A DNA stretch of 64,000 nt from Candidatus Omnitrophota bacterium (GTDB lineage Bacteria > Omnitrophota > Gorgyraeia > 2-02-FULL-51-18): the NCBI GenBank assembly GCA_023247915.1, contig JAHFFN010000001.1:9417-73416 (forward strand). Reading direction: 5' to 3'. The position numbers and the translations under genes are program-made. Below are positions 9,000 through 36,970 of the stretch, piece by piece (within the stretch, counting starts at the first letter, position 1; the number at the start of each line of letters is the position of its first letter). The notes beneath the pieces were generated by a model. That model had not been told where the DNA came from, searched no databases, and saw nothing but the letters and a program-made list of their open reading frames with translations.

Positions 9000-9852
9000 G
9001 TTTTTTTCCTCGTTTTAGAAGAACGACCGGGACTTTCGATGAAAGACGCGCGCATTGGGTGAAATGACTTGCCCCCAATTTTTTTGTGGAGTGCCTTTCA
9101 ATTCCATACGAACAGCGGAGCAATTCTACAAACGCCTGCCGAGGATCCAATGAGCGAATTTGAACCTTGGGGCTTTCTTTTAAAACATAAATTTTTCGAA
9201 GCGGCGCATTCTTTTTGAAAAATGATTTCCTTTTTAAAATGGATCGCTTTTTAGATCCCGGCTCAACCAAAGGCGCTTCCCTAAGAGAAACTTTTAAAAA
9301 ACGCGCGGCGTCAGGCCATAATTTTATTTGTGGAAATGCCGGAATCACCTGAAAACCTTTTTTGGGATCCAGAGCCAACGCATTATCGGTAAGCAGCGGA
9401 TAGCCTCTGGCATGAAATAGGGCGACCGTCGTGGACTTTCCCTCCCCAGAGGCTCCCAAAAACGCGATGGCACCCTTTTTGGAAGCGACCGCGGATCCGT
9501 GCAACACAAGATACCCTCTTTGCTCAAGAATAATCGACAACGCGGCGCCTAACAACACCAATCGCAACACTTTGGGGCTCCCCTTGCGATCGGGATCTAC
9601 CCAGATTTCCTTTCCATCCCGCACCAGCAGAGACGCTTCATTTTTCCAATGAAGAAACACGCGATTTGGATTTTTTGAATTAAACGAATGGTCTCGAAAA
9701 TGCGGGCTTTTTTGAAAAACTTCGCGAGAACTCAGTGGTTTGGAGATAATTTTGATGTCTACCGGTTTTCGCCCCGAAGAAAGTTCGGGCAAAAAAAATT
9801 CGGAGGAAATATTTAAACCAAAAGCGTTATAAAGAAACTTTTTCTTGGGCAA
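8950..9852 (-). CDS. HPr-kinase-like lasso peptide tailoring kinase
   Basis: 300 aa. LVLHGSAVASKKGAIAFLGASGEGKSTTVALFHARGYPLLTDNALALD matches the HprK C-terminal P-loop domain. The gene lies immediately downstream of the precursor ORF with a 3-nt gap. It uses a TTG start. Confidence 0.7.
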   Translation of the reverse strand: MPKKKFLYNAFGLNISSEFFLPELSSGRKPVDIKIISKPLSSREVFQKSPHFRDHSFNSKNPNRVFLHWKNEASLLVRDGKEIWVDPDRKGSPKVLRLVLLGAALSIILEQRGYLVLHGSAVASKKGAIAFLGASGEGKSTTVALFHARGYPLLTDNALALDPKKGFQVIPAFPQIKLWPDAARFLKVSLREAPLVEPGSKKRSILKRKSFFKKNAPLRKIYVLKESPKVQIRSLDPRQAFVELLRCSYGIERHSTKKLGASHFTQCARLSSKVPVVLLKRGKKLADLPALIQAVERDLL

Positions 9853-9855
9853 AAA

Positions 9856-10011
9856 TCAGGTGGCAGCTCGGCTCGCGGCATCGTTGGTTCGCGTTCCCTT
9901 GGCGGTTATTTTGTGAATAGTTCCATAAACCGTCAGTTTTGGGGAAGAATAGCTTTTTTTCTTGGAGGATTCGGGCTTTGTGGAAACGCGATTTTCTTTT
10001 TGTTTTGACAT
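9856..10011 (-). CDS. Lasso peptide precursor (A) gene, 51 aa, not present in the ORF track
   Basis: Manual translation gives MSKQKENRVSTKPESSKKKSYSSPKLTVYGTIHKITAKGTRTNDAASRAAT, with TGA at 9856-9858 and an in-frame TAA two codons upstream of the ATG. The leader carries a YSSPKL motif like paeninodin-type leaders (YSKPSL). A Thr lies near the cleavage site. The predicted core, AKGTRTNDAASRAAT or KGTRTND..., has Asp at position 8 or 7 for macrolactam formation and a Ser/Thr-rich tail. Confidence 0.65.
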   Translation of the reverse strand: MSKQKENRVSTKPESSKKKSYSSPKLTVYGTIHKITAKGTRTNDAASRAAT

Positions 10012-10034
10012 GGGTTAATTATAACAAATCCCTC

Positions 10035-11558
10035 TCAAATATCAACAATATCATCCTGGCGAACACTGAACATCTTTACCACATAGTCGGGACTTTGAGA
10101 TCCGAAGAAAACATGGTTTTTAGCTTGATAAAAGCCTAGCCGGATCAGCCTTTCATCCAGGTCATTGATTGCCTCGGTTTGAACGAGATTCATGGCAATA
10201 AACCACACCCGCGAAAATTTCTGAGTCCCGTGCCTGCCATTAAAATCTCTCATATCCACAAAAGTGGCTTTGGTGGAAAGATTTAATTTTTTTTGATAGT
10301 AGTCCATGATCGAATTTGGTTTCGCGATGGCGTCATTCTCCCCCGCGTGCTCCAAAACATAGCGAAACCCGCCCTCAAAATCGTCCTTGGATTCAATATC
10401 CGCGGGAAGATAAATCGCCCGAAGACTTTCTCTAAACAGCGCCACGCTGAATAAACTTAAAAATAGAAGCAGAAAAGCTCTATTTTTTAAGGTGGTCACA
10501 CTTTTGGCTAGCCATAGAATGATGAAAATTGCCACAAATCCAAAATAGCGGGACTTCAATCGGCTGTGATCCAATATCACGACGATCACAGGAAACGAAA
10601 GAATAGCGATCGCGATGAATTTTTCTTTTAGTTCGCTTTTAAAAAAGCGCCACGCGATCAAGCCCCCGGCGATGGCAAAGCATAAAGCTGAAAAACAAAA
10701 AGACCAGGAAGTTTTAAAATAATGCAGGACATCTTTATTAAAATTAATATCAAAAAACGGCCCTACGAGAGAGCTCCAATAGATGCAAAGTATTTTTCTC
10801 GGTAAAATCCACGGCCGGCTAAACAACATCTCGTCCCGACAAGAGATGGATTCGTTAAAAGGAAAGCAGGTGTTGTAAAAATGATAGAGGCACAACAAAA
10901 GCGCAGGCACGCAAACCACAAATACAACGCCTTGAAACCATAATGTTTTTTTTGGGGTCTGCTTGACCCAAACCATCCATGCATGCGCCCCAGCAATCAC
11001 CCCAAACCAAAACCAAGAAAAATGAGTCGTGTAAATAGCGGCGGCGGCTGTCAGGCCATAAACGATTCCCCACTTAGCAGGTCGCGCGGCGCGTGTCATT
11101 CTTAGAAAAAAGTAAGTCCCCCACGTATAAAAAAGAACCGGTAGTCCATGATTTCTAATTTCATTGGTCAGGTGAATAAAATAAGGTGAGATCGAAACAA
11201 AAAATGCCGCGAATAGGGCGGTTCTTTTCTCGTAGTACTCTTTTGCTAGAAAATAAACCCCAACGATCACTCCGACACCCGCTATCCATGAGGGCAGTCG
11301 AAAAGCAATTTCATTAAAACCAAAAAAACGTATCGATTCGTGCAGTAAAACAAAATAAAGCGGCGGGTGGACGTCCTGAATGCAATAAAAAATTCCCGCT
11401 TTTAAAGGCGCCTTCGCGATAAGAATACTGGCCCATTCATCGCCCCAAAACGCATGACCCCTTAAAAGCATCCAGAGTCTTAGAACAACCCCTATAAAAA
11501 AGAGAATCAAGAACATGGTTTGCTTTTCAACCACAAAGATAAAAGGGTGGCCTGCCAT
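10035..11558 (-). CDS. GT-C family membrane glycosyltransferase (PMT_2/ArnT-like)
   Basis: 507 aa polytopic protein. HPPLYFVLLH...FRLPSWIAGV...ISPYFIHLTNEIRNHGLP is the conserved N-terminal block of the ArnT/PMT-like family. It is paralogous to 15230-16705. Confidence 0.65.
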   Translation of the reverse strand: MAGHPFIFVVEKQTMFLILFFIGVVLRLWMLLRGHAFWGDEWASILIAKAPLKAGIFYCIQDVHPPLYFVLLHESIRFFGFNEIAFRLPSWIAGVGVIVGVYFLAKEYYEKRTALFAAFFVSISPYFIHLTNEIRNHGLPVLFYTWGTYFFLRMTRAARPAKWGIVYGLTAAAAIYTTHFSWFWFGVIAGAHAWMVWVKQTPKKTLWFQGVVFVVCVPALLLCLYHFYNTCFPFNESISCRDEMLFSRPWILPRKILCIYWSSLVGPFFDINFNKDVLHYFKTSWSFCFSALCFAIAGGLIAWRFFKSELKEKFIAIAILSFPVIVVILDHSRLKSRYFGFVAIFIILWLAKSVTTLKNRAFLLLFLSLFSVALFRESLRAIYLPADIESKDDFEGGFRYVLEHAGENDAIAKPNSIMDYYQKKLNLSTKATFVDMRDFNGRHGTQKFSRVWFIAMNLVQTEAINDLDERLIRLGFYQAKNHVFFGSQSPDYVVKMFSVRQDDIVDI

Positions 11559-13375
11559 AAAAGCGTGGCATCCTCATGCGTGGCGTTTTTTAAAAATCGG
11601 TTGTGACATTCCTTAAGAATCGCCAACTCCATGTACGGCGCGATCGCTTCTGTTTCTTCAATCACTTCTTTCCGGATCATGGCCTCGTGGACATTTCTCA
11701 AGGTTTTAATCAAATGCCCGCCCATATAAATTTTTCCACCGCGACGTCGGACTTTTTCTGGCAAAATATCTTTTAGACTTCTCCTCATTAGCGCACGAGT
11801 CCAGCCCTCTTCCAATTTTTGACGAGCCGGTAGCGAGAAACAAAATTCCACGAGCCTCCTGTCAAAAAAAGGGTAGCGATGTTCGATAGAAAAAGGGGCG
11901 CTTAGATGATTCATGGCTATTATATTTTCCGGAATTAGGCCGGAAGACAACTCGTTTTGCTGTTCCTGCCGAACTGTCAGAACCGCCTGCATTTGATACC
12001 CGAGATAATGCTCGGCGCGGCGTTTCAATTTTATTTTTTTTGCGAAATCTCGATTGATCGCCGTCCCGTCCATCCACAAGGGTTTCCCACGCCAGCGAAC
12101 CTGCCGCCATGCCTTCCAAACCGGCGCCGGCATCAAAGGCCTCAACGCTTTCTGCCACAACACCCTCTCCACCGGCTGTTTCAAATGTTCTGAAAGCGCA
12201 CGAGCTTCTTTAAAAAGCTTTCCCCAACGAAACCGGCTTAAAAGCTCGGTCAAATGCGCGTAGCCTCTCCCCACCACTTCATCGCCGCCGTATCCGTCCA
12301 GCAAAACTCTTACCTTCCGTTTTTGCGCCTCGGGGTACACGCCCGCTTGAAACAAGGATAAATTAGCGATATAAGGCCCGTCTAAACGCCGAAAAGCAAC
12401 CTCCGGATCTCTCAGTGGTGTCATGGAGTCCGCTTGAATTTCATGCGGTACCTTTCCTGGCAAGTCGTTCACAGATTGGATAAATTCTCTTTCGTCGCAT
12501 TCTGGAAATTGATCGAATACCAACGAAAAAGTATTCACGGAGCCTGCCATACTGACAATGGAGGAGGAGTCCAGCCCTCCGCTTAAAAGCGATCCCGCCG
12601 GAAATGCGCTTCGCAAACGGCAGTCCACCGCTTTTTTAAAAAGTTCTCTAAATCGCTCCTCACATTCCCGATCTGGCAATGAAAGAGGCTGGCTATCAAG
12701 TTCCAAACTCCAATATTTTTTAAGGACAATTTGACGCGGAGCGATGGTGAGCGAATGCGCCGGCGCCAGACAACGTATATTTTCATAAAATGTGATTTCT
12801 TTGTCTTCGCCAGACCAAAGAAGAAAATCACCAATCATGGTCTCGTTTAGGCGTGGCTCAATTTCAGGGCAACAAAAAAGCGCCTTGATCTCAGAGGCAA
12901 AGGCAAACAATCGATCTGATTTGAAATAATAAAAGGGCTTTATTCCAAAAATATCTCTCGCACAAAAAATTTGTTTTTTATTTTCATCCCAGATCGCGAA
13001 AGCGAAATCACCCAAGATCTTGTCGGGACAGGTCTCTCCCCACTTCTGGTAAGCCTTCAAAATCAAGGCGCTGTCGGAAATATCCGTTTGATTTTCGTTT
13101 TTTCCGTAAAAAATTTCGAGAAGCTCTTCCCGGTTATCAACGCGCGCGTCGGCAGTGATGGCCAGTCGTGATTTTTCGTCAAAGAAAGGAAGTTTTTCGG
13201 GGATGGACTCAGGAGTCGTCCAAAACATCCGGTGAGTGAATCCCACGGAACCCCGGCTCCAAATACCGGACGCATCGGAACCTCTAGGAACCAAGCTTCG
13301 ATTCATTCCATCCAATAGTTCGGATTCTACCGGCCTTGCGTCTCGATAATAAACTCCCGCGAGTCCGCTCATCAA
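11507..13375 (-). CDS. Lasso peptide cyclase (asparagine synthetase B-like, C protein)
   Basis: 622 aa. The AsnB fold has a PP-loop SGGLDSS. The N-terminus is MMSGLAGV, with Ser where AsnB has its glutaminase Cys, consistent with a cyclase rather than a true Asn synthetase. Confidence 0.75.
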   Translation of the reverse strand: MMSGLAGVYYRDARPVESELLDGMNRSLVPRGSDASGIWSRGSVGFTHRMFWTTPESIPEKLPFFDEKSRLAITADARVDNREELLEIFYGKNENQTDISDSALILKAYQKWGETCPDKILGDFAFAIWDENKKQIFCARDIFGIKPFYYFKSDRLFAFASEIKALFCCPEIEPRLNETMIGDFLLWSGEDKEITFYENIRCLAPAHSLTIAPRQIVLKKYWSLELDSQPLSLPDRECEERFRELFKKAVDCRLRSAFPAGSLLSGGLDSSSIVSMAGSVNTFSLVFDQFPECDEREFIQSVNDLPGKVPHEIQADSMTPLRDPEVAFRRLDGPYIANLSLFQAGVYPEAQKRKVRVLLDGYGGDEVVGRGYAHLTELLSRFRWGKLFKEARALSEHLKQPVERVLWQKALRPLMPAPVWKAWRQVRWRGKPLWMDGTAINRDFAKKIKLKRRAEHYLGYQMQAVLTVRQEQQNELSSGLIPENIIAMNHLSAPFSIEHRYPFFDRRLVEFCFSLPARQKLEEGWTRALMRRSLKDILPEKVRRRGGKIYMGGHLIKTLRNVHEAMIRKEVIEETEAIAPYMELAILKECHNRFLKNATHEDATLLWQATLLSLWLKSKPCS

Positions 13376-14328
13376 TCCTTGACCCGGATGAGCAGGCCTT
13401 TAAACATCAAACGCTTCACATAAAACTTAAGATCTTTTTCCAAGCGAACAGGATCCACCTCGTATTCTTTTTGTATCGCCCGGGACACCGCTTTCACGTC
13501 CTTTAATTCCTCCAAAAGCTCCCAGAAATGCGAAGCGATGCCGTCGAGCCGTAAACAAATCCTGGTTTTCGCGTTCACGACGAGTCGACCACTAGCGGTT
13601 CTTTTTGAGACCACCTCGTCCGGAATCTGCACCCGCGACACTGGCCGATTGTCAGGTCGGCGCGTTTTCATTTTAGTTAAGACAGTCCCGTCCGAACCGA
13701 GCCTCATAAACGAAACTCCGCGTTTTTTCGGCAGAAACCAACCAGCCAACACTGTTCTTGGGTTTCGACCCGTCGGCATCGTGACCCGGTGCTGAAGCTT
13801 TTTGGAGATGCGAAATAAAAAAGCATTTCCAAATCCGGTGTTGGCGATCTGTGCGGTAATCTTTTTGGAAAACCTGTTCCTTATTTTAAAAACCCCGCCC
13901 TGATAAACACGCTCGCTTAAATTCACGCTAATCCCTACATAACGCAAATGCCGGACGTCGATGTCATTGTGCCAATGATCATAATGGCCGCGGCCGGGAA
14001 TTAAAGAATACATGCGCCCGGCAAAACACCCGATTTTTTTACAACCCGTGATTCGTTCCACCGCTTTAAAAAGCGCGGGATCGTTGAGCAGAAAATGCAT
14101 CGCGTTAATCCCGGTATTTTGTCTCATGCAAGACTCGGTGGCGATGCCCCTATCTGTTCTGGGGTAAAATTCAGCCGAACGAACCGTCTGTTGAATAAAT
14201 TTCAGTAAGGATTTATCTAGAAATTTTTGGATTTTAATTAGATTCGTTTGAGAATATTTATTTTGAACTTTCCTTAGATTTTTTTTAGAAAAAGAAATAT
14301 GAGTGCCCGTCTTTTTGATTTGTATCAT
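13372..14328 (-). CDS. Fe(II)/2OG oxygenase domain fused to a C-terminal PqqD-like RiPP recognition element (RRE)
   Basis: The start is probably MIQIKK at 14328, forming an ATGA overlap with the upstream paralogue's stop. The N-terminal domain has HxD (WHND), a distal His (QHRVT) and RNPRT...GWF (prolyl-4-hydroxylase-like 2OG-binding Arg/Thr). The C-terminus, ICLRLDGIASHFWELLEE...QKEYEVDPVRLEKDLKFYVKRL, matches PqqD. Confidence 0.6.
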   Translation of the reverse strand: MIQIKKTGTHISFSKKNLRKVQNKYSQTNLIKIQKFLDKSLLKFIQQTVRSAEFYPRTDRGIATESCMRQNTGINAMHFLLNDPALFKAVERITGCKKIGCFAGRMYSLIPGRGHYDHWHNDIDVRHLRYVGISVNLSERVYQGGVFKIRNRFSKKITAQIANTGFGNAFLFRISKKLQHRVTMPTGRNPRTVLAGWFLPKKRGVSFMRLGSDGTVLTKMKTRRPDNRPVSRVQIPDEVVSKRTASGRLVVNAKTRICLRLDGIASHFWELLEELKDVKAVSRAIQKEYEVDPVRLEKDLKFYVKRLMFKGLLIRVKD

Positions 14329-15194
14329 ACGTTTTTTAAAAAACCATGCGCGTTTAAATGATGAGCCAAAGACAAAACATCTTTTTCTAAAACATCGGGA
14401 GCTACACGATATTCCTTTTGAAGTTCCCGCAAAGCTAATTTCAGATGAGGTCTCTTTTTCAGATGATCCCACATCTTTCCCGCTACCGGGTCTAGCTCGC
14501 ATAATAAACTACGTTTTGGATCAAAAATAATTCTTTTTTTGTCTTTGGAATATTCCAAAAGTCCCTGGGGAATCTTCCATCGCGCCCCGTTTTTTTTGTT
14601 TGGCCTTACGACAATTTTTTTAGAACGCTCAAATGGTAAATCCGCACACGCGCAAAACCACCCGGTAAAAGCCGTTTTTGGATTTTTACCTCCGATGGCC
14701 GTCACGCGATGTTGCAAAAAACTAGCAACGCGAAACAAAACAACGTCCCCCAGTCCTGTGTTTTTGATCTCATGTAAAATATTTTTAGAACCGCGACGGC
14801 GTATCTGAAGAATCCCGCCTTGATAAGGTTTGGGACTCAAATTTAGGGTCAGCGCGACTCGCCGACCATACACCAAATCGTTATGCCAACGCATGGAGTC
14901 TTGATAACTGGGCAAAAGACGATAAGTGCGCCCGGTAAAAGAGCGGATACCGGCACAGCCGGTAATTTCTTTTATTTTTTTTAAAAGGGAGGGGTCATTC
15001 AACAGAAATTGAAGCGTATTGGATCCGGCGTTTTCACCGATCATGGACTCCGATCCACCGGAATCTTGATAGCGGAATGGTTTTGATTTCTTAAGAGCCT
15101 TCAGAATTTCCCGCAACAGTTTCTTGTTCAGGAATTTAGGCAAGCGAACATAATGATGCTTCTGATAAAATCGGCGCAGAGAGCTCGGAACCAT
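14325..15194 (-). CDS. Fe(II)/2OG oxygenase-RRE fusion, paralogue of 13372-14328
   Basis: 289 aa. FLLNDPSLLKKIKEITGC...WHND...YQGG...QHRVT...KNPKT..TGWF is followed by the PqqD-like LLCELDPVAGKMWDHL...LQKEYRVAPDVLEKDVLSLAHHL. Confidence 0.6.
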   Translation of the reverse strand: MVPSSLRRFYQKHHYVRLPKFLNKKLLREILKALKKSKPFRYQDSGGSESMIGENAGSNTLQFLLNDPSLLKKIKEITGCAGIRSFTGRTYRLLPSYQDSMRWHNDLVYGRRVALTLNLSPKPYQGGILQIRRRGSKNILHEIKNTGLGDVVLFRVASFLQHRVTAIGGKNPKTAFTGWFCACADLPFERSKKIVVRPNKKNGARWKIPQGLLEYSKDKKRIIFDPKRSLLCELDPVAGKMWDHLKKRPHLKLALRELQKEYRVAPDVLEKDVLSLAHHLNAHGFLKNV

Positions 15195-15229
15195 GGACGT
15201 ATTTTACCTCAAACGAGTATAATGAATCC

Positions 15230-16705
15230 ATGTTCCTATTTCTTATTTGCTTGCTTGGAATGGCACTGCGTTCGGCGCTTCTTTGGACAAATCGATCCTT
15301 TTGGTTTGATGAATGGGCTAGCATTGCCGTCGCCCAACACCCTTTAAGCCAAGGGATTAAAATTTGCGCGCTGGACACTCACCCTCCCCTTTATTTTGTC
15401 CTTCTGCGCCTTTCAGCCGTACTTTTTGAATTCAAAGAATGGGCTTTTCGTCTGCCATCCCTGGCGGCGGGTATCCTGCTTTTAGTTTTTGTGGCGCTTT
15501 TAGCCAATCGTCTTTTTGGAAAAAAAGTGGCGCTTCTATCCGCTTATTTTGTCGCGATCTCTCCTTATTTCATCCATCTTTCTTATGAAATAAGAAATCA
15601 CGGGCTTCCGATTCTTTTTTATGCGGCAGGAAGTTTTTTATTTTTTAAAATGATTGAAGGTTCTGATCGTAAACGTTGGCAATGGAGTTATGCCCTAACG
15701 GCCTGCGCGGCGCTGTACACAGTGCATTTTGCCTGGTTTTGGCTAACCGGGATTTTGGGGCTTCATTTTTTTCTTTCGCGAAATGAAGAAAACGCCAAAA
15801 AAGCCCTAAAGATTCAGGCGCTTGTGCTTTGCTTGGGAATCCCCGAACTCTGTCTTTTGGCTTACAACGTCCTGCATCGTGATGAAATCAGAGGATACAA
15901 TCTGGCTTCGCTTCATAAAATCGCGATTGCCGCCAAAGAAATTGTTTTTGTTTACTGGAATATTCTCGTCGGGTCGCGATTTTACATGCACTGGTCTTCA
16001 TCTATTTTTAGCGCCATGCGATCTTCCGTATTTTTTTGGCTGTCTTTGACTTTATTTCTTCTGGCAAGCGTTTCGATTGTCTATGAATTTTCCATGATTT
16101 TTAAAAAACAAAAAAGTCTTTTCTATTTTCTTATTTTTATTTGTTTTGTTCCTGTTTTTTTGGTGAGTCTCATCAACACCAACCGTCTGGACGCGCGCTA
16201 TTTTTCATTTGCGGCACTTTTTTTGATCCTCATTTTTTCAAAGAGCCTGATCGATTCCCATTCGAAAAAAAGCCGAATCGCGCTGATTGTTCTGACCACT
16301 CTCGTTTCGCTGAACGGGTTTGTTTACCTCGCGCAAACCCATGTTGATCCAATGCACCGGGACGATTATCAGGAAATGACGCGCTATGTTTTAACGCATG
16401 CTAAAAAAAATGATTTGGTTTTTATCAGTTCCCCGGTGGTGAATTATTATTCGAAAAAACTCGGGATTGCTTCTCAAGCCGTCCTTACCGAGGATCTAGG
16501 TGCATGGACTCGGAGCAAGGCGAGCCACATAGAAAGAATCTGGATTACCGGGGGAACTCCGTTAACTTCTTGTTTTTTTAAGGAGCTCGCGGATCGAATG
16601 GAAGCTCTGGGATTTGTTCCTGAATTAAAGTTTATCGATTTTGGCGGGGAAGACAACAATACCGGCCTGAACGTATTTAAGAATCAGGCATTCTCTAAAA
16701 AATAA
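15230..16705 (+). CDS. GT-C family membrane glycosyltransferase (PMT_2/ArnT-like)
   Basis: 491 aa. HPPLYFVLLRL...FRLPSLAAGILL...ISPYFIHLSYEIRNHGLP is homologous to 10035-11558. The gene is divergently oriented from the oxygenase-RRE genes. Confidence 0.65.
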   Translation: MFLFLICLLGMALRSALLWTNRSFWFDEWASIAVAQHPLSQGIKICALDTHPPLYFVLLRLSAVLFEFKEWAFRLPSLAAGILLLVFVALLANRLFGKKVALLSAYFVAISPYFIHLSYEIRNHGLPILFYAAGSFLFFKMIEGSDRKRWQWSYALTACAALYTVHFAWFWLTGILGLHFFLSRNEENAKKALKIQALVLCLGIPELCLLAYNVLHRDEIRGYNLASLHKIAIAAKEIVFVYWNILVGSRFYMHWSSSIFSAMRSSVFFWLSLTLFLLASVSIVYEFSMIFKKQKSLFYFLIFICFVPVFLVSLINTNRLDARYFSFAALFLILIFSKSLIDSHSKKSRIALIVLTTLVSLNGFVYLAQTHVDPMHRDDYQEMTRYVLTHAKKNDLVFISSPVVNYYSKKLGIASQAVLTEDLGAWTRSKASHIERIWITGGTPLTSCFFKELADRMEALGFVPELKFIDFGGEDNNTGLNVFKNQAFSKK

Positions 16706-17934
16706 GTTTTCTCTAACCATTCTTGGATAGCGGATGCGACTACTTGATGGCCGCGTGGATTCCAGTGCACATCAATTTTATAATTTAGGTTTTGATCGGG
16801 AAACGCGTTTACTTCTTTTCTTAAAAGAGGCGTTAAATTTAAAAACGGTATTTTATTTTTTTGAGCTAACACTTCCACCCTCTTCTCAAGAGTCGTGGTT
16901 TCGGTCAGCCATTCTTTCCGGACAACAAGCCCCAGCTGAATAGGGAGCGTATCAAATCCGGGGTCATACTGGTAAGGACAGGGCGCGTAGATAATTCCGA
17001 CTTCTATCTTGCGCGATTGGCACTTTTGAATCATTTTAGAAAAAATAGTCTCCATCGCCTTCCAGTTCTTTTCATCCTTAGGCGTAGGGATGTCCAACGA
17101 GGAAGTCCAATAGTCCGGCCGAGTCAAAGCGAACTTGACTCTATAAAATCCCACCCGGCTCTCATTAATCTCTTGAATGGCATCCGCAGGCACTTTTTTA
17201 AGCCAGTCATCGATTCTTCCTTGAGAAACATGACGGAGTCTGGCCTCTTGAAGAGTCTCTTTCACAACATCCAAACTTTTGGCTGATTCCCATTTCCTCT
17301 GCCCATGGTAACAAGCTTTTCTTATAAGCATAAGTAGCTTTGGAAATAAAATTTTAATTTTTTCTTTTAAAAAATTCCTTAAGGGGTTTAGTGAGTCGGT
17401 GGATGGCGCCTCATCATTTCCCGCCTCATCCACACCACTGTCTCCCGTGTCTTCCACATCGTTGGCATAAATCACAAACAAAACTTTATTGGGGTGATAC
17501 TTTAAAGCTGTTTCCGAAAGCATGCGCGCATATTGAGGAGGCCCGAAACCGGAAATTCCGCAATTAATAAAAGAGATTCTCTTGCCGGACTTACGGTATT
17601 GATTTTCAAGAATCGCCGGAAAAGTTTGATCCGCTTCTACCCCTTCCCCCTCAACAAAAGAATCGCCAATCACCACCACTCTCTCTTCATCCGGAGATCT
17701 TTTAAACGGAATATTTTGATAACGAATTCCCTGACTGTTGGATTTGATGTGATAAATACCATTTAAAAATTTATTCGTGGACTCATAATATCGAGGGTAC
17801 GACGCCTTGGAGGATTCTCCCTCAACCCAAACCAGTAAGGGCTCCACAACAAAACACATCGCGATAAACGTTAAAAAAAATAAGGCGCTGTTTTGGATTA
17901 TTTTAAGAAGCTTCATTAAAAAATCCTTGCGCAT
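16684..17934 (-). CDS. SGNH/GDSL-fold protein of the AlgX/AlgJ type (putative polysaccharide O-acyltransferase/esterase)
   Basis: 416 aa. N-terminal TM segment, then GDSFVEG (GDS block), IYANDVED, and DVHWNPRGH (the DxHW motif of AlgJ/AlgX). Confidence 0.55.
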   Translation of the reverse strand: MRKDFLMKLLKIIQNSALFFLTFIAMCFVVEPLLVWVEGESSKASYPRYYESTNKFLNGIYHIKSNSQGIRYQNIPFKRSPDEERVVVIGDSFVEGEGVEADQTFPAILENQYRKSGKRISFINCGISGFGPPQYARMLSETALKYHPNKVLFVIYANDVEDTGDSGVDEAGNDEAPSTDSLNPLRNFLKEKIKILFPKLLMLIRKACYHGQRKWESAKSLDVVKETLQEARLRHVSQGRIDDWLKKVPADAIQEINESRVGFYRVKFALTRPDYWTSSLDIPTPKDEKNWKAMETIFSKMIQKCQSRKIEVGIIYAPCPYQYDPGFDTLPIQLGLVVRKEWLTETTTLEKRVEVLAQKNKIPFLNLTPLLRKEVNAFPDQNLNYKIDVHWNPRGHQVVASAIQEWLEKTYFLENA

Positions 17935-19150
17935 CCAACCATGATTTAATTGTTTTGGCCGCGACGCGATGGCCTTCGGGCGTCCAATGAACGTCGATGT
18001 GAAAATTAAGCGGCTTTTCCGCGTGTGGGTAAGCTTCCCGCAGTGCCGGCGTCAGGTCTAAAAAAGATATTTTTTGCGCCTCCGCCAAAGACCGGAGACG
18101 TTTTTCAAATGCCGTTTCCTCGGTCAGCCATTTTTTCTCCACTCGAAGCCCAAGATTCACCGAAACGGGGTCATGATCGGGGTCGTACTGAAAAGGGCAA
18201 GGAATATAAATCATCGCGATTTCCACTCCCCGGCTCCGGCAGTGATCGAATATTTGATTTAAGGTTTTGTCCACGGCTTTCCATCGTTCTTCGGATTCGG
18301 GATCGGAAATATCCAGGGACTGTGTCCAAAAATCGGGCTCCAACAAACCCGCGACCAACCGGTCATGGCAAATCATGAAATGATTTGTTTTTTCGAGATC
18401 TTCTTGAGGAATTTTTTTTGCCCATTCTTCCACTTTTTTAGCAGGAATGCCCTTCCGCATCGCCTCGGCTCTTCCCAATTGAATGACGTCAAATTGTTGA
18501 TGTCGATCCCTGAAATACCGGTAACGCATCAGAGCACCTCTAAGTAAAGTGTACAATCTCGGGAAAATAGCGTGCGCCGCTTTCTTGATCCCCTTTGGTT
18601 CTTCCGGGATCTCTTCTAAGTGAAGCGGCGTTTTCCAATCCGTTTTGCTTATTTCTTGAAGTGTCGGCATGTCATGCAAATCATTCGCGTAAATAGCCAA
18701 AAGCAATTTATCCGGATGATAGGAGAATCCGATCTTGTCTAAAACTCTCGCGTACACATCGGGATTAGCCCCTGAGATGCCACCATTAATGAATAAAATA
18801 TTTTTGTTTTCTTCCGAATATTCCTTTTCAAGAAGAGCCGGGAAAGCCTGTTCAGCTTCCACTCCCAGTCCTTCAACAAAGGAGTCCCCTATAACCAATA
18901 CTCTAATCTCCTCGGGAGATTTTTTTTCTTGGGAAATGTCAGGGTAACGGATTCCTTCACGATTGGCTTCAAAGTGATACGTGCGGTTGATCAGATTCAT
19001 TTCTTTTTTAAAATAGGCGGGATACGACACTCTTTTTTCGAGATTTTGCGAAAAACCGCACCACTCGAGCGTCTTTTCGGACAGCCCCAGCATCAAAAGC
19101 GTCGTGAATAAAAAAATGCATGCGTTTTTGAAAAACAATCCGCTCTTCAC
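17903..19150 (-). CDS. SGNH/GDSL-fold AlgX/AlgJ-like protein, tandem paralogue
   Basis: 415 aa with the same blocks: VIGDSFVEG, IYANDLHD, DVHWTPEGH. Confidence 0.55.
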   Translation of the reverse strand: MKSGLFFKNACIFLFTTLLMLGLSEKTLEWCGFSQNLEKRVSYPAYFKKEMNLINRTYHFEANREGIRYPDISQEKKSPEEIRVLVIGDSFVEGLGVEAEQAFPALLEKEYSEENKNILFINGGISGANPDVYARVLDKIGFSYHPDKLLLAIYANDLHDMPTLQEISKTDWKTPLHLEEIPEEPKGIKKAAHAIFPRLYTLLRGALMRYRYFRDRHQQFDVIQLGRAEAMRKGIPAKKVEEWAKKIPQEDLEKTNHFMICHDRLVAGLLEPDFWTQSLDISDPESEERWKAVDKTLNQIFDHCRSRGVEIAMIYIPCPFQYDPDHDPVSVNLGLRVEKKWLTEETAFEKRLRSLAEAQKISFLDLTPALREAYPHAEKPLNFHIDVHWTPEGHRVAAKTIKSWLDAQGFFNEAS

Positions 19151-19860
19151 CGGTTTTTTCCCTTGGCTCTGATTTTAAAAATCATCCCAAAAGCGTCGGC
19201 TAATTTCCCGATAGTCAATTTGGAGTCGCCTCTTTCGCGGTTCAAAAAATCAATCGGGATTTCGACAATATCGAAACCTTTCCGGTGACACACTTCCAAC
19301 ACTTCGAACACAATCGAAGGCCCCGTCGAAACCATCGAGCTCAAATCAATGGATTCCAGAGCCTTTTTTCTAAAACAACGAAAGCCGGAGGTGCAGTCCT
19401 TGTAAGGCATTTTCAAAAATACGCGTATTGCTCCGTTAGCCATGCCGCTCAACGCGTTCCTCAGCATTCCCCTGTTTTTGATAGCGCCTTTCTTTAGATA
19501 TCTGGAACCAATCACGACATCATGCGAGCGCGCGGCTTCTAAGAAATCAGGGATTTTTTCCGGCGCGTGAGAACCGTCGGCATCCATCTCCAAGATAGGG
19601 TCATAGCCTTTTTGGACGGCGTATTCAAATCCTTGCACGCCGGCAAGGCCGCGGCCGCGGGCACCTGTTCGTGAGATAAGCTCCACTTGAGAAAAATCAG
19701 CAGCTATTTTTTTCACGCATTCGCCGGTTCCGTCAGGAGAGGCGTCATCCACGACGATCAGACGGGCTTCGGGAATCAGCCGAAGAATTTGCCTTAAAAG
19801 CGGTTCGATATTTTGCGCTTCATTGTAGGTAGGAATCACAATCGCGGGAAAAGAAGTCAA
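19147..19860 (-). CDS. GT2 polyprenyl-phosphate sugar synthase (Dpm1/ArnC-like)
   Basis: 237 aa. IPTYNEAQNI, VVDDASPDGTGE and EMDADGSH are the GT2 DxD-type blocks of polyprenol-monophosphate hexose synthases. Confidence 0.75.
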   Translation of the reverse strand: MTSFPAIVIPTYNEAQNIEPLLRQILRLIPEARLIVVDDASPDGTGECVKKIAADFSQVELISRTGARGRGLAGVQGFEYAVQKGYDPILEMDADGSHAPEKIPDFLEAARSHDVVIGSRYLKKGAIKNRGMLRNALSGMANGAIRVFLKMPYKDCTSGFRCFRKKALESIDLSSMVSTGPSIVFEVLEVCHRKGFDIVEIPIDFLNRERGDSKLTIGKLADAFGMIFKIRAKGKNR

Positions 19861-20303
19861 CGATTCAAAGCCTTATAAATCGGAACGAAGTGTTCTTTTT
19901 TTTGGCTCTCGCCCAACACCACACGACCACCGCTCTCCATCCAAGCATGCGCTTCCAAAGAAGCGCTCGGATTCTTACTGACACCGATATAAAGCTCCGA
20001 GGCATGCCCCGACTCTAGGAAAAGAGCCTGCGCAACCAGGGCTTTGGACAAGCAATTTTCGGCAAAACGGCTGTGAGCACTGACGGATTCAATCGCCCAA
20101 ATTATTTTTTCTTTGGAAATACCGCTAAGAACATTCCTCCGTTTCAACAGAAGAATAGGTTGAAATAAAAACTGCATCTGCTTTAGAGGAATAAAAAAAG
20201 TAAAAAAACGACTCACATTTAAAAGAATAAATACTCTCACGATTAGTTTTTTTTCGACCCAGGGTATTTGAAAAAACCGTTTTTTAATTTTCTTTGGATT
20301 CAT
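19857..20303 (-). CDS. Lasso peptide leader peptidase B2 (transglutaminase-like cysteine protease)
   Basis: 148 aa. ENCLSKALVAQALF...ELYIGV...LEAHAWMESGG matches the Cys...His core of lasso B2 (PF13471-like). Confidence 0.8.
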   Translation of the reverse strand: MNPKKIKKRFFQIPWVEKKLIVRVFILLNVSRFFTFFIPLKQMQFLFQPILLLKRRNVLSGISKEKIIWAIESVSAHSRFAENCLSKALVAQALFLESGHASELYIGVSKNPSASLEAHAWMESGGRVVLGESQKKEHFVPIYKALNR

Positions 20304-21553
20304 CGCTTCAGTCTATCAAAAGCCGGCTTGAGAGCAACAGCGGAATAAAAAATAAAGACAAAGTCCATCGGTGCCCGGAGCCGCGTCGCGGGCCAATAAA
20401 ACGCGTAAATCAAAGTCAGGCTCACGACAATCACCCAAAGAAAAATATCTTCTCTAAAAATAGACCGTCTTCTCAAATAAATACCGGCAATCGCTGTGAT
20501 AAAAATAAAAAGATGTGTCACTGAATAGGCCGCCTCCACAAGGAGACTTCGACTAGACGCTCCTGAAATCATAGGGCTTCCGTCGGAGCCGGTCTTCAAC
20601 TGCACCGACTCCTCACACAGATAAAACGGAACCAATCTCGGGTGAAATAAATAAAGAATGTTAAGCGCTTTGAGTCGTATCGTCCTCCAAGGATGCTCCC
20701 GCATAAACCGGAATGCTTTTTGTTGGAAAAGACGGTCGACCTCTGTTTCGGAAGTATCTTTAATTTTAATACCATCCGCTTGAAGCGTCTTGAACGCATA
20801 GTCACCCAGCACATCCACGCTGTATCGCGGGATCACATAATCCGAGTATTCGCAATTGCCTTTAAACAAATTGTAACCACTGCGAGTAGGGACGATGGAG
20901 CCGGTGAGAGTAAAATTTCTGTAAAACATCGGAAATGCCGTCACAAAAACAACTAAAAAAAGAATGGCCGCGTCCCGGAATCTTTTTTTGAATAAAAGAA
21001 TCCCCATTCCTATCAGGACAACCGGGAAAATAACAAATCTCGTTAAAATCGTAAGCCCCAGAGCTAATCCGCAGCCCGCCGCCGCCCTCCATTTTTCAGT
21101 GTTCAAATAATAATACGAGGCTACAATCAAAAGTGTCATAAATAATGGTACCTCGATGATCCCAACAGATTGTCGGATAAGATAAGGATGAAAAGAATAC
21201 AGAAAGACCGCGATCAATCCGACGCGGGATTCTCGCGTAAGCGCCACACAAAGTTTATACAGAAAAATAGTTCCCAAAGCACTGACACCGATTTGAGCCA
21301 TCATCACCCAAAAAAATTGATCCCCAGACAGCCTTCGAAATACCGCCAAAAACAACGGGTAAAACGGTTCATACCAAGAAGTCTCCATTCCTCCGTCAGT
21401 CCACCTCCAACGATGCAACAATTCTTGCATCCAGTATGGGTTCCCGGAGGTTCGAAGTGTTTTAAAATAAAATGAGAGGTAAGAAAACCGGGGAATAAAA
21501 CTCAGAGAGAAAATTAAAAAATATTTTCGCTGATGGGGGAAAAAATCCATCAA
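20300..21553 (-). CDS. GT-C-like polytopic membrane glycosyltransferase
   Basis: 417 aa with about 10 TM segments. It is placed between B1 and B2. GT-C family assignment rests on hydropathy pattern and context only. Confidence 0.4.
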   Translation of the reverse strand: MMDFFPHQRKYFLIFSLSFIPRFSYLSFYFKTLRTSGNPYWMQELLHRWRWTDGGMETSWYEPFYPLFLAVFRRLSGDQFFWVMMAQIGVSALGTIFLYKLCVALTRESRVGLIAVFLYSFHPYLIRQSVGIIEVPLFMTLLIVASYYYLNTEKWRAAAGCGLALGLTILTRFVIFPVVLIGMGILLFKKRFRDAAILFLVVFVTAFPMFYRNFTLTGSIVPTRSGYNLFKGNCEYSDYVIPRYSVDVLGDYAFKTLQADGIKIKDTSETEVDRLFQQKAFRFMREHPWRTIRLKALNILYLFHPRLVPFYLCEESVQLKTGSDGSPMISGASSRSLLVEAAYSVTHLFIFITAIAGIYLRRRSIFREDIFLWVIVVSLTLIYAFYWPATRLRAPMDFVFIFYSAVALKPAFDRLKR

Positions 21554-21843
21554 ATTTTTATTTCAATAAGGCGGGCATCCGCCAATTGATTCAAAACCTG
21601 TAAGATATCCTTCTCGCACGATTCTGTATCCACATCGTATTCTTTCAAAACCGCTTTTTGGATATCCCGCACAAAAATAGGCTTGTCTGAAATAAGATTC
21701 CACACAAACGCGCCCACCGTGTTCAAACCGTAATACATGCCCGCTTTGAGATCCAACACCACCGCCTCTCCGGACAAATCACAAGAAACCTGGTCTTTAG
21801 CCAGACAAACCAAAGCATCCAAAGACAGAGCATTGTTTTTCAT
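21550..21843 (-). CDS. Lasso peptide B1 protein (PqqD-like RRE)
   Basis: 97 aa. AVVLDLKAGMYYGLNTVGAFVWNLI...IQKAVLKEYDVDTESCEKDILQVLNQLADARLIE is a canonical PqqD/RRE. Confidence 0.8.
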   Translation of the reverse strand: MKNNALSLDALVCLAKDQVSCDLSGEAVVLDLKAGMYYGLNTVGAFVWNLISDKPIFVRDIQKAVLKEYDVDTESCEKDILQVLNQLADARLIEIKI

Positions 21844-23342
21844 GTTTCGACCCCCCGAGGAGTTCTTCTATAAACTTCTAAGTCATTTTTCGGAGGTTTT
21901 ATTTTCCAACGGCCAAAACCAATCTCCCCTTTATGATTTGGATTGGAATCTAGAGTGTCCTGCAAAAACCATTCACCCCCAATGTCTCCTTTATAATCTG
22001 CAATAGAATCCGGCCGGATAATCACAATCGACACGTCTTTTTTGTCTTTTTCGGTAAATGTGCTGTATGTCCATAAAAATACATGCGGAGTAATCGCCTT
22101 AACCGCGTAATACGGCAAAAAGCCGCAATACACGACGTCCTCTTTTTTGACATGTTTTTTGATAAAAGTCTCGACCATCCGGTAATCCCTAGCCTCGTAT
22201 TGATACAAAATCAGAGCCAGTCTTGCAGGTAGTCCAGCGATCAACACGAAGGAGATGATGGCCGCCAAAAGAATTTTCTTTTGTTTAGCGCCCAGAGAAA
22301 AATCAGCAGAAAACAGTGCCATAATAACGCAAATTCGAAGCGGTAGACTGATTGTCCAGGAATACTGCACGTGAAAATCCCATACCAGCCACATGATCAA
22401 CGGAAAAAGAAGAAATACCGTTCCGGCAAACCGAAGCCGTGTTTTTTGTTGAGACGTTAGGTAGCGTCCCGCCTTCCATAAAAGGAATAACGCAACAATA
22501 AAAAGAAAGATAGCCCCAACCGAAGCATTTTGAATCACCAAAAGTCTTTGTTTTTCCTGCCAAGTTTGGCCAAAAAAAACATACTGTTTGTTATAAGCCA
22601 AAAAAGCGTCCATCGCGTCATGCCAGCCAAAAAATGCCAGCATCCACGGGATCCCTGAGAAAAACCCGAGTCCCATCATAATAAATTCGTCCAAAAATGC
22701 TTTTTTAAAATAAAAAAAGAAAAGCACTGCGATAAAAATACCATAAAGCACTAGTGGTAACTGTACCCAGGGACAAATAAAAGCCAAAACAAAAATTGAA
22801 ATGAACCGTCCGTATTTATTTTTGATTGAAAAAGAACACAAAAGAGCGGCGGCCAACAAAATTGCCAGCGCATCCTGTCTTCCGCTTCTATAAGAGATCG
22901 TCGCCCCATGTCCACAGAGAGCCAGCACTAAAAGCGTCAAGCGGCCGCGGGTATCCTTGAACCAACCGAATCTCAGCGAGGACAACCATAAAAAAAATCC
23001 TGCCAAAGCCGCAAAAAAATAACCCATGGATCGGATTGTCGTAAGGCTAAATCCAAATATTTTAAGCCAAACAGATAAAAGAAGCGGGTAGAGTGGCACG
23101 TAGCAAGACCAAAAATCATGCCCACTTTGAAAAGGCCACGCATTGGAAACAAATCCTTCACCTAAATATAGATTTAGGCCGGGACTTACATAAAAAACTT
23201 CGTCATACCAAGGAACTGGTGATAAATGAGCGGTGAATAAATTAACTAAAAAGAAAACACTTAAAATCAACGCAACCCACCATGATTCATTTTTGCAGGA
23301 CATACGGCACTCCATAATCTCCGCTACTCCCCCCCTGCGCAT
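21840..23342 (-). CDS. GT-C-like polytopic membrane glycosyltransferase
   Basis: 500 aa. Many TM segments and an N-terminal periplasmic-loop WYDEVFY (DE motif). The start may be an internal Met. Confidence 0.4.
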   Translation of the reverse strand: MRRGGVAEIMECRMSCKNESWWVALILSVFFLVNLFTAHLSPVPWYDEVFYVSPGLNLYLGEGFVSNAWPFQSGHDFWSCYVPLYPLLLSVWLKIFGFSLTTIRSMGYFFAALAGFFLWLSSLRFGWFKDTRGRLTLLVLALCGHGATISYRSGRQDALAILLAAALLCSFSIKNKYGRFISIFVLAFICPWVQLPLVLYGIFIAVLFFFYFKKAFLDEFIMMGLGFFSGIPWMLAFFGWHDAMDAFLAYNKQYVFFGQTWQEKQRLLVIQNASVGAIFLFIVALFLLWKAGRYLTSQQKTRLRFAGTVFLLFPLIMWLVWDFHVQYSWTISLPLRICVIMALFSADFSLGAKQKKILLAAIISFVLIAGLPARLALILYQYEARDYRMVETFIKKHVKKEDVVYCGFLPYYAVKAITPHVFLWTYSTFTEKDKKDVSIVIIRPDSIADYKGDIGGEWFLQDTLDSNPNHKGEIGFGRWKIKPPKNDLEVYRRTPRGVET

Positions 23343-24612
23343 TGATAAAAGTCATCATCAGCGGATAAATCGCCGCCGTCGCTACTAGAGATACGATAAT
23401 CCATGCGCCCACCAAACACCGCGCGGCCTTGTCCCCAAACCATGGAGTGACGCGGCGATAAATCGCAAAAAAACCGAGCGCGATCGCCACAAACACATAA
23501 GGCATCGCCGGAATCATGTGATGCGGATAGACATCAATAGGAGACATCAGCATAAATAGCGGGAAAAAGATCAAAGCAGCAAAAGCGGTCGCGTATTCGG
23601 GTTCCGCGTCTCTGGTGTGCCCTAATTTGATCACTTCCACGAGACCCTCCATGAAAGGCCACGCCAGAATCGCTGTCGCCAAATGAATGAATCCTGTAAG
23701 CCACCCACACGGCCAACGCATAAATTTCATAAATTCATCATCAGCGAGCGCATAGGTCGCTTCCCACCCTGTCGCAAAACTGAAAGGGTGTTTCAGTGGC
23801 ACCATGTGCGCGTTGGAAACAAAAATGGATATAAATTTAAACGGGCTAATGAGCTGCAAGCGCGCTTCGCCGGTAAAATGCGATACCATCGTAAAAACAG
23901 CCCATGGAAAAAATAATGCCACGGACACTCCGATGCCGGCCATCAAACTGGGTTGATGAAATTGAACCTTCCTGCGCCAGGCTGTCCAAGCCAGCGCTAC
24001 TGCCAAAGCAACCGTCGGTAAATACATCTCCGAAGCCAAGGCAATTAAGCATAAAAGAGGAAAAATCGCGCGACTTCTTGATTTTTGAAGCACGCGAACA
24101 AAAAGAGCTAACGCTGGAATCAGAAAAGGCAGGATGAGATCCGGTGACCAAAGTTTGCGTGAAAAAGTGATTGCCCATGGGGAAACCGCAAAAAACGCGA
24201 GCGCAACCAACGCGATCCAACGCCAACGAGAACGAAAAAGACCATACGCCGCCGCCGCAAGACCTATGATGTTGAGCAGGACAACCCACACCACTGTCCC
24301 AAGAGGCGTGCGACCCAGCCATCGAAACAACGTCGTGGTATAAATAAATAAAGGCAATTCATAGATATCGCCCATGCTTGTTTTTAGCCCATAAGGAAGA
24401 AAAGTGGGATGTTTTAAAAAATTTCCCGCCATCACATAAGCATTTTGCTCATCTTCTTTCCATTCCATCGATGAAAAAAAAGATAGGCGGAGCCACGCTC
24501 CGATAATGACCACAAGCACAAACCAAATCCAATGGATAGAGTCTTTATTTTTATCTTCTTTAGGAGATAATCGCGGCATGGATAGCCTCGCAAACGGTTT
24601 CAATATTTTCAC
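23287..24612 (-). CDS. GT-C-like polytopic membrane glycosyltransferase
   Basis: 441 aa. EWKEDEQNAY acidic motif in the first loop, followed by many TM segments. Confidence 0.4.
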   Translation of the reverse strand: MKILKPFARLSMPRLSPKEDKNKDSIHWIWFVLVVIIGAWLRLSFFSSMEWKEDEQNAYVMAGNFLKHPTFLPYGLKTSMGDIYELPLFIYTTTLFRWLGRTPLGTVVWVVLLNIIGLAAAAYGLFRSRWRWIALVALAFFAVSPWAITFSRKLWSPDLILPFLIPALALFVRVLQKSRSRAIFPLLCLIALASEMYLPTVALAVALAWTAWRRKVQFHQPSLMAGIGVSVALFFPWAVFTMVSHFTGEARLQLISPFKFISIFVSNAHMVPLKHPFSFATGWEATYALADDEFMKFMRWPCGWLTGFIHLATAILAWPFMEGLVEVIKLGHTRDAEPEYATAFAALIFFPLFMLMSPIDVYPHHMIPAMPYVFVAIALGFFAIYRRVTPWFGDKAARCLVGAWIIVSLVATAAIYPLMMTFINAQGGSSGDYGVPYVLQK

Positions 24613-36759: not shown

Positions 36760-36765
36760 AAAAAC

Positions 36766-36853
36766 GGAGAGACTGGGATTCGAACCCAGGGACCAGTTTT
36801 ACCCGGTCAGTCACTTAGCAGGCGACTGCAATCGGCCTCTCTGCCATCTCTCC
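36766..36853 (-). tRNA. tRNA-Ser (anticodon GCT)
   Basis: GGAGAGA acceptor, anticodon stem-loop GTCGC-CTGCTAA-GTGAC, long variable arm, T-arm CTGGG-TTCGAAT-CCCAG, TCTCTCC-G. Confidence 0.85.
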
Positions 36854-36885
36854 AAAAACTATTTTAAGTCAGCAAACAAGAATGG

Positions 36886-36970
36886 CGGAGAGGGTAGGAT
36901 TCGAACCCACGGTACCTTTCGGCACATCCGCTTTCAAGGCGGACGCAATCGACCACTCTGCCACCTCTCC
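36886..36970 (-). tRNA. tRNA-Ser (anticodon TGA)
   Basis: GGAGAGG acceptor, anticodon stem-loop TCCGC-CTTGAAA-GCGGA, long variable arm, GTGGG-TTCGAAT-CCTAC, CCTCTCC-G. Confidence 0.85.

Follow-up and report, generated by a model that had tools for sequence, protein, structure and literature searches.

Two overlapping genes for predicted Fe(II)/2-oxoglutarate oxygenases fused to RiPP recognition elements in a kinase-type lasso peptide cluster of a Candidatus Omnitrophota bacterium

The DNA analyzed here is a 64,000-nucleotide stretch of contig JAHFFN010000001.1 from a Candidatus Omnitrophota bacterium (hereafter the window; coordinates are window positions, with (-) and (+) for the strand). 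It carries two adjacent genes, each encoding a 2-oxoglutarate (2OG)/Fe(II) oxygenase domain fused to a recognition element (RRE) of the kind used by the pathways of RiPPs (peptides synthesized ribosomally and modified post-translationally), followed directly by a lasso cyclase gene. OxyRRE-1 (14325..15194 (-), 289 amino acids [aa]) was delimited from its open reading frame (ORF), matches to PF13640 and PF05402, and an AlphaFold2 (AF2) model, and OxyRRE-2 (13372..14328 (-), 318 aa) likewise from its ORF, Pfam matches, and an AF2 model. The proteins are 36% identical over their full length. An ATGA start/stop overlap at 14325..14328 (-), within the sequence ...aaaaacgtATGAtacaaatc..., joins the two genes, so that the paralogous pair coupled by ATGA put forward in the original prediction, which was made from the letters alone, is borne out. 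The ATG of OxyRRE-2 at 14328 lies inside a longer mechanical ORF (13372-14502) and overlaps the upstream TGA (gtATGAtac), giving the 318-aa product; its stop codon (13374-13372) overlaps the start of the cyclase gene, as read from the sequence. From these two overlaps, OxyRRE-1, OxyRRE-2, and the cyclase are translationally coupled. The 289-, 318-, and 621-aa genes are called identically in public assemblies of the same DNA, where a protein (P0049) is 100% identical to OxyRRE-2 and has the same start. An N-terminal beta-hairpin of about 15 residues is present in OxyRRE-2 (14284-14328 (-)) and in most family members and is missing from OxyRRE-1 (15150-15194 (-)), for which an upstream in-frame start was looked for and none exists.

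The oxygenase domains span approximately residues 1 to 185 of OxyRRE-1 (14640..15194 (-); delimited by DSSP strands between residues 15 and 181, Foldseek, and invariant columns) and 1 to 203 of OxyRRE-2 (13720..14328 (-)). PF13640 (2OG-FeII_Oxy_3) matched OxyRRE-1 with 32.9 bits, above its gathering cutoff of 27. The AF2 models, built from an alignment of 46 sequences, reached a predicted local distance difference test (pLDDT) of 89.3 and a predicted template modeling score (pTM) of 0.79 for OxyRRE-1, and 91.9 and 0.89, respectively, for OxyRRE-2. Both show a beta-rich N-terminal domain followed by a 12-residue linker of low confidence (residues 189 to 200 in OxyRRE-1 and 208 to 219 in OxyRRE-2). 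By AF2 and Foldseek, the N-terminal domains are double-stranded beta-helices of the prolyl hydroxylase type, as the original prediction had anticipated, and the 2-His-1-carboxylate residues are intact by sequence. The OxyRRE-1 domain matched 6n1f, Tpa1, PHD2, and PPHD with E values of 1e-10 to 1e-7. The top structural neighbors are hydroxylases, and the closest folds are those of protein prolyl hydroxylases acting on ribosomal proteins, EF-Tu, and HIF.

The HxD motif, distal histidine, and basic 2OG-binding residue that had been read from the sequence are all present. In OxyRRE-1, the predicted iron ligands are H104 (codon 14883-14885), D106 (14877-14879), and H162 (14709-14711), with K173 as the putative binder of the 2OG C5 carboxylate; their counterparts in OxyRRE-2 are H120 (13969-13971), D122 (13963-13965), and H180 (13789-13791), with R191 as the putative 2OG binder (all codons (-)). 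The H, D, and H of the HxD...H motif are invariant among the 46 aligned sequences, and the motif plus a K or R at +11 from the distal histidine is kept in 30 of 30 oxygenase sequences (the 2 of the window and 28 homologs), for which reason we rejected pseudo-enzyme status for one of the paralogs. Halogenase chemistry is ruled out by the presence of HxD instead of HxG/A.

The C-terminal parts belong to the PqqD-like RRE family, in agreement with the fusion first proposed. PF05402 (PqqD) matched both proteins above its cutoff of 23.4 bits (32.7 and 37.1 bits), while the lasso-specific profile NF033536 stayed at about 20 bits, under its cutoff of 80. In OxyRRE-1 the RRE occupies 14328..14573 (-), as delimited by the AF2 elements, the PF05402 match at residues 222 to 286, and a gap-free alignment; in OxyRRE-2 it covers approximately residues 231 to 318 (13375..13638 (-)). 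The AF2 models adopt the expected winged helix-turn-helix, with three beta-strands followed by three alpha-helices (in OxyRRE-1, strands 213-217, 220-225, and 230-234 and helices 236-247, 251-262, and 266-282). No internal gaps interrupt the alignment of the fused RREs with TbiB1, PbaB1, and the free B1 protein of the window, and the KEYxV...EKD segment is kept. In the PbaB1/LppB crystal structures, the Y/WxxPxL leader motif is held by two hydrophobic pockets and a hydrogen bond, which the corresponding residues form (PMC13381572). The counterparts of L65, Y69, V71, the acid binding the tyrosine hydroxyl, L87, and L92 (PbaB1/LppB residues) are conserved in the fused RREs, and the position of F83 is Leu in OxyRRE-1 and Tyr in OxyRRE-2. 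Compared with the lasso B1 RREs of known structure (TbiB1, 5V1U/5V1V; TfuB1, 6JX3; PbaB1, 9X90), which are discrete proteins partnering with B2 proteases, those of OxyRRE are fused and have a diverged third strand: beta3 reads LCEL or CLRL, versus Y-Y/F-G/N-L in canonical B1. Leader affinity or register could therefore differ, and we rate leader binding by the fused RREs, as judged from sequence, as likely rather than established.

This divergence, together with the retention of a free B1 in the cluster, would also fit oxygenases that act on the lasso precursor while their fused RREs bind no leader and serve for docking or scaffolding (for instance, on B2, the cyclase, or the other paralog) or are vestigial. 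LanB-type and dehydrogenase fusions supply documented cases of vestigial or nonbinding RREs (PMC7470986), and the pTM values of the two models suggest an RRE packed on the catalytic domain and not floating. We nonetheless regard this explanation as unlikely, given the conserved hydrophobic pocket residues and tyrosine-binding acid, the match of the RRE halves to a leader-bound B1 structure (E value of 1e-13), and the retention of the full-length domain in about 60 divergent sequence clusters among the best 150 found with HMMER (see below).

By sequence, the surrounding genes form a kinase-type (paeninodin-like) lasso cluster. The cyclase (C; 11507..13375 (-)) has Asn_synthase and GATase domains and scored 669 bits with NF033535 (cutoff, 525). 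The B2 leader peptidase (148 aa, 19857..20303 (-)) matched NF033537 with 68.3 bits (cutoff, 33) and PF13471, and the free B1 (97 aa, 21550..21843 (-)) matched PF05402 with 66 bits and NF033536 with 69.5 bits, under the cutoff of 80. A hidden Markov model (HMM) scan of the 64 kb returned exactly three RRE-bearing ORFs and two oxygenases; the free B1 and the total of three RREs that the original prediction had counted were thereby confirmed. The HprK-like kinase (8950..9852 (-)) matched TIGR04352 weakly, and almost every related cluster has an ortholog of it next to the cyclase. It is accompanied by a nucleotidyltransferase (NTase; 7860..8999 (-), PF14907, 134 bits) and an ATP-binding cassette (ABC) exporter that is the probable D protein (6169..7884 (-), ABC_tran and ABC_membrane).

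The precursor peptide (51 aa, 9856..10011 (-)) is the sole match in the window to the leader pattern that we wrote for the search, [YWF]xxPx[LVIM]x3Gx4-6[TI]x, which requires a G and a T or I after the motif; it scored 26.9 bits with NF033528 (lasso_cyano), under the cutoff of 33. Its leader (...Y21SSPKLTVYGTIHKIT36A37) holds the YxxPxL motif in Y21-S-S-P24-K-L26, followed by G30 and T36-A37, and the predicted core, KGTRTNDAASRAAT, has K1 and an acidic acceptor (D7) at position 7. Homologs of the precursor hold the same position in related clusters. The core begins, unusually, with Lys and has a tail of small residues, and its predicted ring of seven residues (K1-D7) is unusually small. In related clusters (precursors in loci L003 to L089), the cores are short as well as polar and basic; a [K/R]-T ending, probably the site of the kinase, is found in most of them. 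A sigma-70-like promoter close to consensus at 10018-10045 (-) (TTGATA, a 16-nucleotide spacer with TG, and TATAAT; 11 of 12 matches) ends 6 nucleotides ahead of the precursor ATG at 10011, a position that implies a dedicated, nearly leaderless precursor transcript; promoter-like matches overall were not enriched in the window over shuffled sequences (6 found versus 8.1 expected).

Taking the locus together, we consider it fairly probable that OxyRRE-1 and OxyRRE-2 are two specialized Fe(II)/2OG peptide oxygenases, guided to the leader by their own RREs, within a kinase-type lasso pathway. Leader binding, the order of the steps, the chemistry, and the target residue are the parts that we infer. 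The C-terminal RRE would capture the YSSPKL segment of the leader as an extra beta-strand, and this tethering would bring the core of the linear, leader-bearing peptide to the iron center of the double-stranded beta-helix. There, 2OG and O2 would yield an Fe(IV)=O species oxidizing, most probably hydroxylating, a side-chain C-H bond before leader removal. The two paralogs would act at different sites or steps. As the leader has one YxxPxL motif only, a sequential hand-off is assumed, in which the precursor goes from one RRE to the next among the two fused ones and free B1. Finally, B1 would present the precursor to B2 for leader removal and the cyclase would close the predicted ring.

Several observations speak for this interpretation. 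They include the catalytic residues, RRE pocket residues, and gene overlaps described above and the lasso gene context and paired paralogs described below. The precursor carries the very YxxPxL motif that the conserved RRE pocket residues would be predicted to hold, and the enzyme CanE of Streptomyces canus offers a precedent for RRE-stimulated action on a linear precursor. According to reviews, CanE is the sole demonstrated Fe/2OG lasso hydroxylase; it beta-hydroxylates the C-terminal Asp of canucin, accepts the precursor in its linear form only, as opposed to the folded lasso, and receives strong stimulation from CanB1 in trans (PMC9266682, PMC8498205). A review of June 2026 lists no additional lasso oxygenase (PMC13352647). 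The likeness in described function lies in the Fe/2OG tailoring of a lasso precursor and in the dependence on a B1-type RRE. In contrast to the window, with its two RRE fusions plus a separate B1, CanE is a stand-alone protein that borrows the single B1 of its pathway, and its target has no counterpart in the window core, which ends in Thr. RRE-dependent Fe/2OG tailoring of lasso peptides is known; here it would take a fused, duplicated form. The locus would hard-wire and duplicate a partnership known from CanE/CanB1 only, while keeping a third, free RRE for the protease. It therefore lends itself to studying the sharing of one leader motif among several RREs and the way in which leader-guided oxygenases gain site specificity.

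Besides the diverged beta3 strand, several points weigh against this interpretation. The PF13640 score of OxyRRE-2 (25.0 bits) is 2 bits below the gathering cutoff. Three RREs competing for one leader motif would be mechanistically awkward. A Binataceae-type clade of single fusions lies outside lasso clusters, so the architecture can occur apart from lasso substrates. Proline is absent from the predicted core, although the nearest structural relatives are prolyl hydroxylases, and a residue common to all associated cores was looked for in about 25 to 30 predicted cores and none was found: Pro, Asn, and Asp-Gly are each missing from some of them. Nor did any core residue count consistently track the number of oxygenase paralogs in this set. 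The more specific chemistry suggested at first, such as beta-hydroxylation of Asp/Asn or Thr in the core, was overstated.

The outcome of a leader-guided reaction could also differ from a single hydroxylation, since desaturation, epimerization, oxidative C-C or C-N cleavage, and cross-linking all lie within the repertoire of the 2OG oxygenase fold, whose representatives among the structural neighbors include the carbocyclase SnoK, EasH, and AsqJ. Consecutive oxidations at one site by the two paralogs are another form of this alternative, and SmaO/SmaX, which carry out a two-step oxidative cascade on Asp, exemplify them in RiPPs (PMC12186529). We judge such chemistry improbable here: the HxD motif excludes a halogenase, the top structural neighbors are hydroxylases, and so are the characterized RiPP 2OG enzymes CanE, SmaO, CorC, and CinX and YhhC (the last two cited in PMC12186529). 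Hydroxylation by leader-guided OxyRRE proteins is the outcome that we favor.

Other known systems resemble the locus in part. Kinase-type lasso clusters share with it the A, B1, B2, C, kinase, NTase, and ABC exporter genes, the YxxPxL leader, and a hydroxy amino acid at the C terminus where phosphorylation is likely to take place (PMC8498205, PMC13381572). They differ in that none of the characterized systems in the literature covered was reported with a 2OG oxygenase, whereas in the window and in many kinase-type clusters of Acidobacteriota, Planctomycetia, and Melainabacteria, a PF13640 oxygenase is a regular extra member. Tpa1/OGFOD1, PHD2, Pseudomonas PPHD, and PiuC have in common with the OxyRRE proteins the fold, the HxD...H motif, a basic 2OG residue past the distal histidine, and polypeptide substrates; they are set apart by sequence identities of only 13 to 20%, by the lack of proline in the window core, and by the predicted recruitment through a fused RRE. 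CorC, which hydroxylates the delta-carbon of Lys in the corallotide graspetide pathway, is likewise a divergent PF13640 enzyme in RiPP tailoring, but it acts late, on the cyclized peptide, complexes with an ATP-grasp enzyme, and has no RRE (PMC13097080). RRE fusions reported in the portions of the surveys covered involve glycosyltransferases, carbamoyltransferases, and JmjC-type oxygenases (PMC12710340; PMC7470986). These resemble OxyRRE in joining an RRE to a modifying enzyme, including, with JmjC, a different class of 2OG oxygenase (PMC12710340). Neither the main text of these surveys nor one supplement mentions the PF13640-PqqD architecture (PMC12710340; PMC7470986), and no published description of such a fusion was found in full-text searches, whose coverage leaves out most subscription papers.

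The fusion is nevertheless common in public sequence data. A word-indexed search with one query protein returned two fusions only, a profile search returned about 25 clusters at 90% identity (for some of which NCBI uses the name "PqqD family peptide modification chaperone"), and an exhaustive HMMER search of 1.84 billion representatives returned 507 clusters at 50% identity (E < 1e-30). A manual count in the table of the best 150 of these clusters gave about 60 with full-length fusions. The claim that the fusion, as a tandem pair, was novel went too far, given these roughly 60 public clusters and the tandem arrays of 2 to 5 genes in Melainabacteria and metagenomes. In related loci, which were fetched and annotated by BLAST against the window proteins, an oxygenase, fused or free, stood alongside C, HprK, NTase, B1, and B2 in about 27 of the 34 with enough flanking DNA. 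These loci span Acidobacteriota, Planctomycetia, Melainabacteria, and soil metagenomes, and by this sequence comparison the unfused oxygenase is itself a regular member of kinase-type lasso clusters.

One Melainabacteria metagenome-assembled genome (MAG) carries both a pair of these genes (L009, 6965-8891) and a five-gene array (L014, 8013-12852). Locus L008 (2451-6712) has four consecutive oxygenase genes, including one for a 545-aa 2OG-2OG-RRE protein and a terminal copy without an RRE. In a neighbor-joining tree of oxygenase domains, the paralogs of L008 and L014 form orthologous pairs, suggesting functional specialization and not recent redundancy. Clusters with a free oxygenase mostly have a single RRE, and we rejected a private RRE for every oxygenase as a general rule on these grounds. 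In Pyrinomonadaceae-type clusters, which have the order B2-OXY-RRE-C, the RRE beside the oxygenase is probably the sole B1. The common state resembles CanE with CanB1 in trans, which makes the fused state of the window a derived one. Split arrangements, either B2-OXY-RRE-C or RRE-OXY with a small discrete RRE gene (L019 to L021, L048, L051, and L091; L042, L056, and L059), look like gene-fission or gene-fusion intermediates of the window architecture. Among the loci compared, the closest syntenic cluster is that of a Planctomycetia MAG (L010), whose cyclase is 43% identical to that of the window. It has a DOT1/PCMT-like methyltransferase gene between the Oxy-RRE gene and the cyclase (8858-15387), and no B1 or B2 homolog was detectable within 10 kb. 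The Binataceae-type fusions (L001, 6695-11017; L004, 4852-9038; L005, 8001-8975; L013) follow directly after two TldD/PmbA protease genes in two contexts. A precursor-like small ORF or YxxP-type precursor was looked for near these fusions and nothing convincing was found; they may represent an unrecognized peptide modification system.

In the window, genes for PMT_2/GT-C-like membrane proteins, a GT2, and two SGNH/AlgX-like proteins are interleaved among the lasso genes, and the block is flanked by the ABC exporter, a Wza-like Poly_export gene, a Wzz/Wzc-like gene, and an AsmA-like gene (interleaved and flanking genes at 10035-11558, 15230-16705 (+), 20300-21553, 21840-23342, 23287-24612, 19147-19860, 16684-19150, and 1688-7884). 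Such a setting, with Wza/Wzc-type export genes, raises the alternative that the oxygenases act on an intermediate, glycan or lipid, from the polysaccharide locus around them, or on some peptide or protein other than the lasso precursor; the Binataceae-type fusions without lasso genes nearby and the closeness of the fold to protein prolyl hydroxylases point the same way. There is little probability to it in our view, as OxyRRE-2 is translationally coupled to the cyclase, the fused RRE is of the lasso B1 type, a single peptide in the window matches the leader pattern used, and the oxygenase family is found together with C, HprK, and NTase in different phyla, also where GT-C genes are lacking. 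A similar neighborhood recurs in L010 (15347-20045), where the OxyRRE-C-A-HprK-NTase block is followed by genes for an outer membrane barrel, Poly_export, and Wzz/Wzc, and in L080, L089, and L099 the cluster has PMT-like genes next to it. The gene content of these loci suggests that this lasso type is linked to glycan or exopolysaccharide machinery.

A broader reading, which we advance as speculative and rather unlikely, is that PF13640-type oxygenases, alone or fused to an RRE, would make up a large leader-guided family, with arrays of up to five site-specialized paralogs with private RREs in some lineages. In the window, the interleaved GT-C/PMT_2 and GT2 enzymes would attach sugars to the hydroxyls so introduced, in a collagen-like "hydroxylate then glycosylate" scheme, giving a heavily decorated lasso-type product tied to Wza/Wzc export; in Binataceae, a non-lasso peptide pathway associated with TldD/PmbA would have taken up the same family. 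The family occurs widely among uncultivated Acidobacteriota, Planctomycetia, Melainabacteria, and Binataceae; since no paper describing it was found, reconstituting one member would provide annotation for hundreds of clusters. The family is also a possible source of portable, leader-addressable C-H hydroxylases for peptide engineering. The finding leaves the principles of RiPP biosynthesis standing.

Beyond the export genes, the window encodes a PhyH-family (phytanoyl-CoA dioxygenase-like) 2OG oxygenase (646-1407 (-)), which is probably unrelated to the lasso cluster. The remainder includes three tRNA-Ser genes (CGA, GCT, and TGA), two of them directly adjoining serS (1583-1667, 36764-36970, and 36983-38257), and a nitrate/nitrite assimilation block (NirB, NasC-like, and NtrB) at 46.8 to 56.2 kb, both of which are ordinary chromosomal context.

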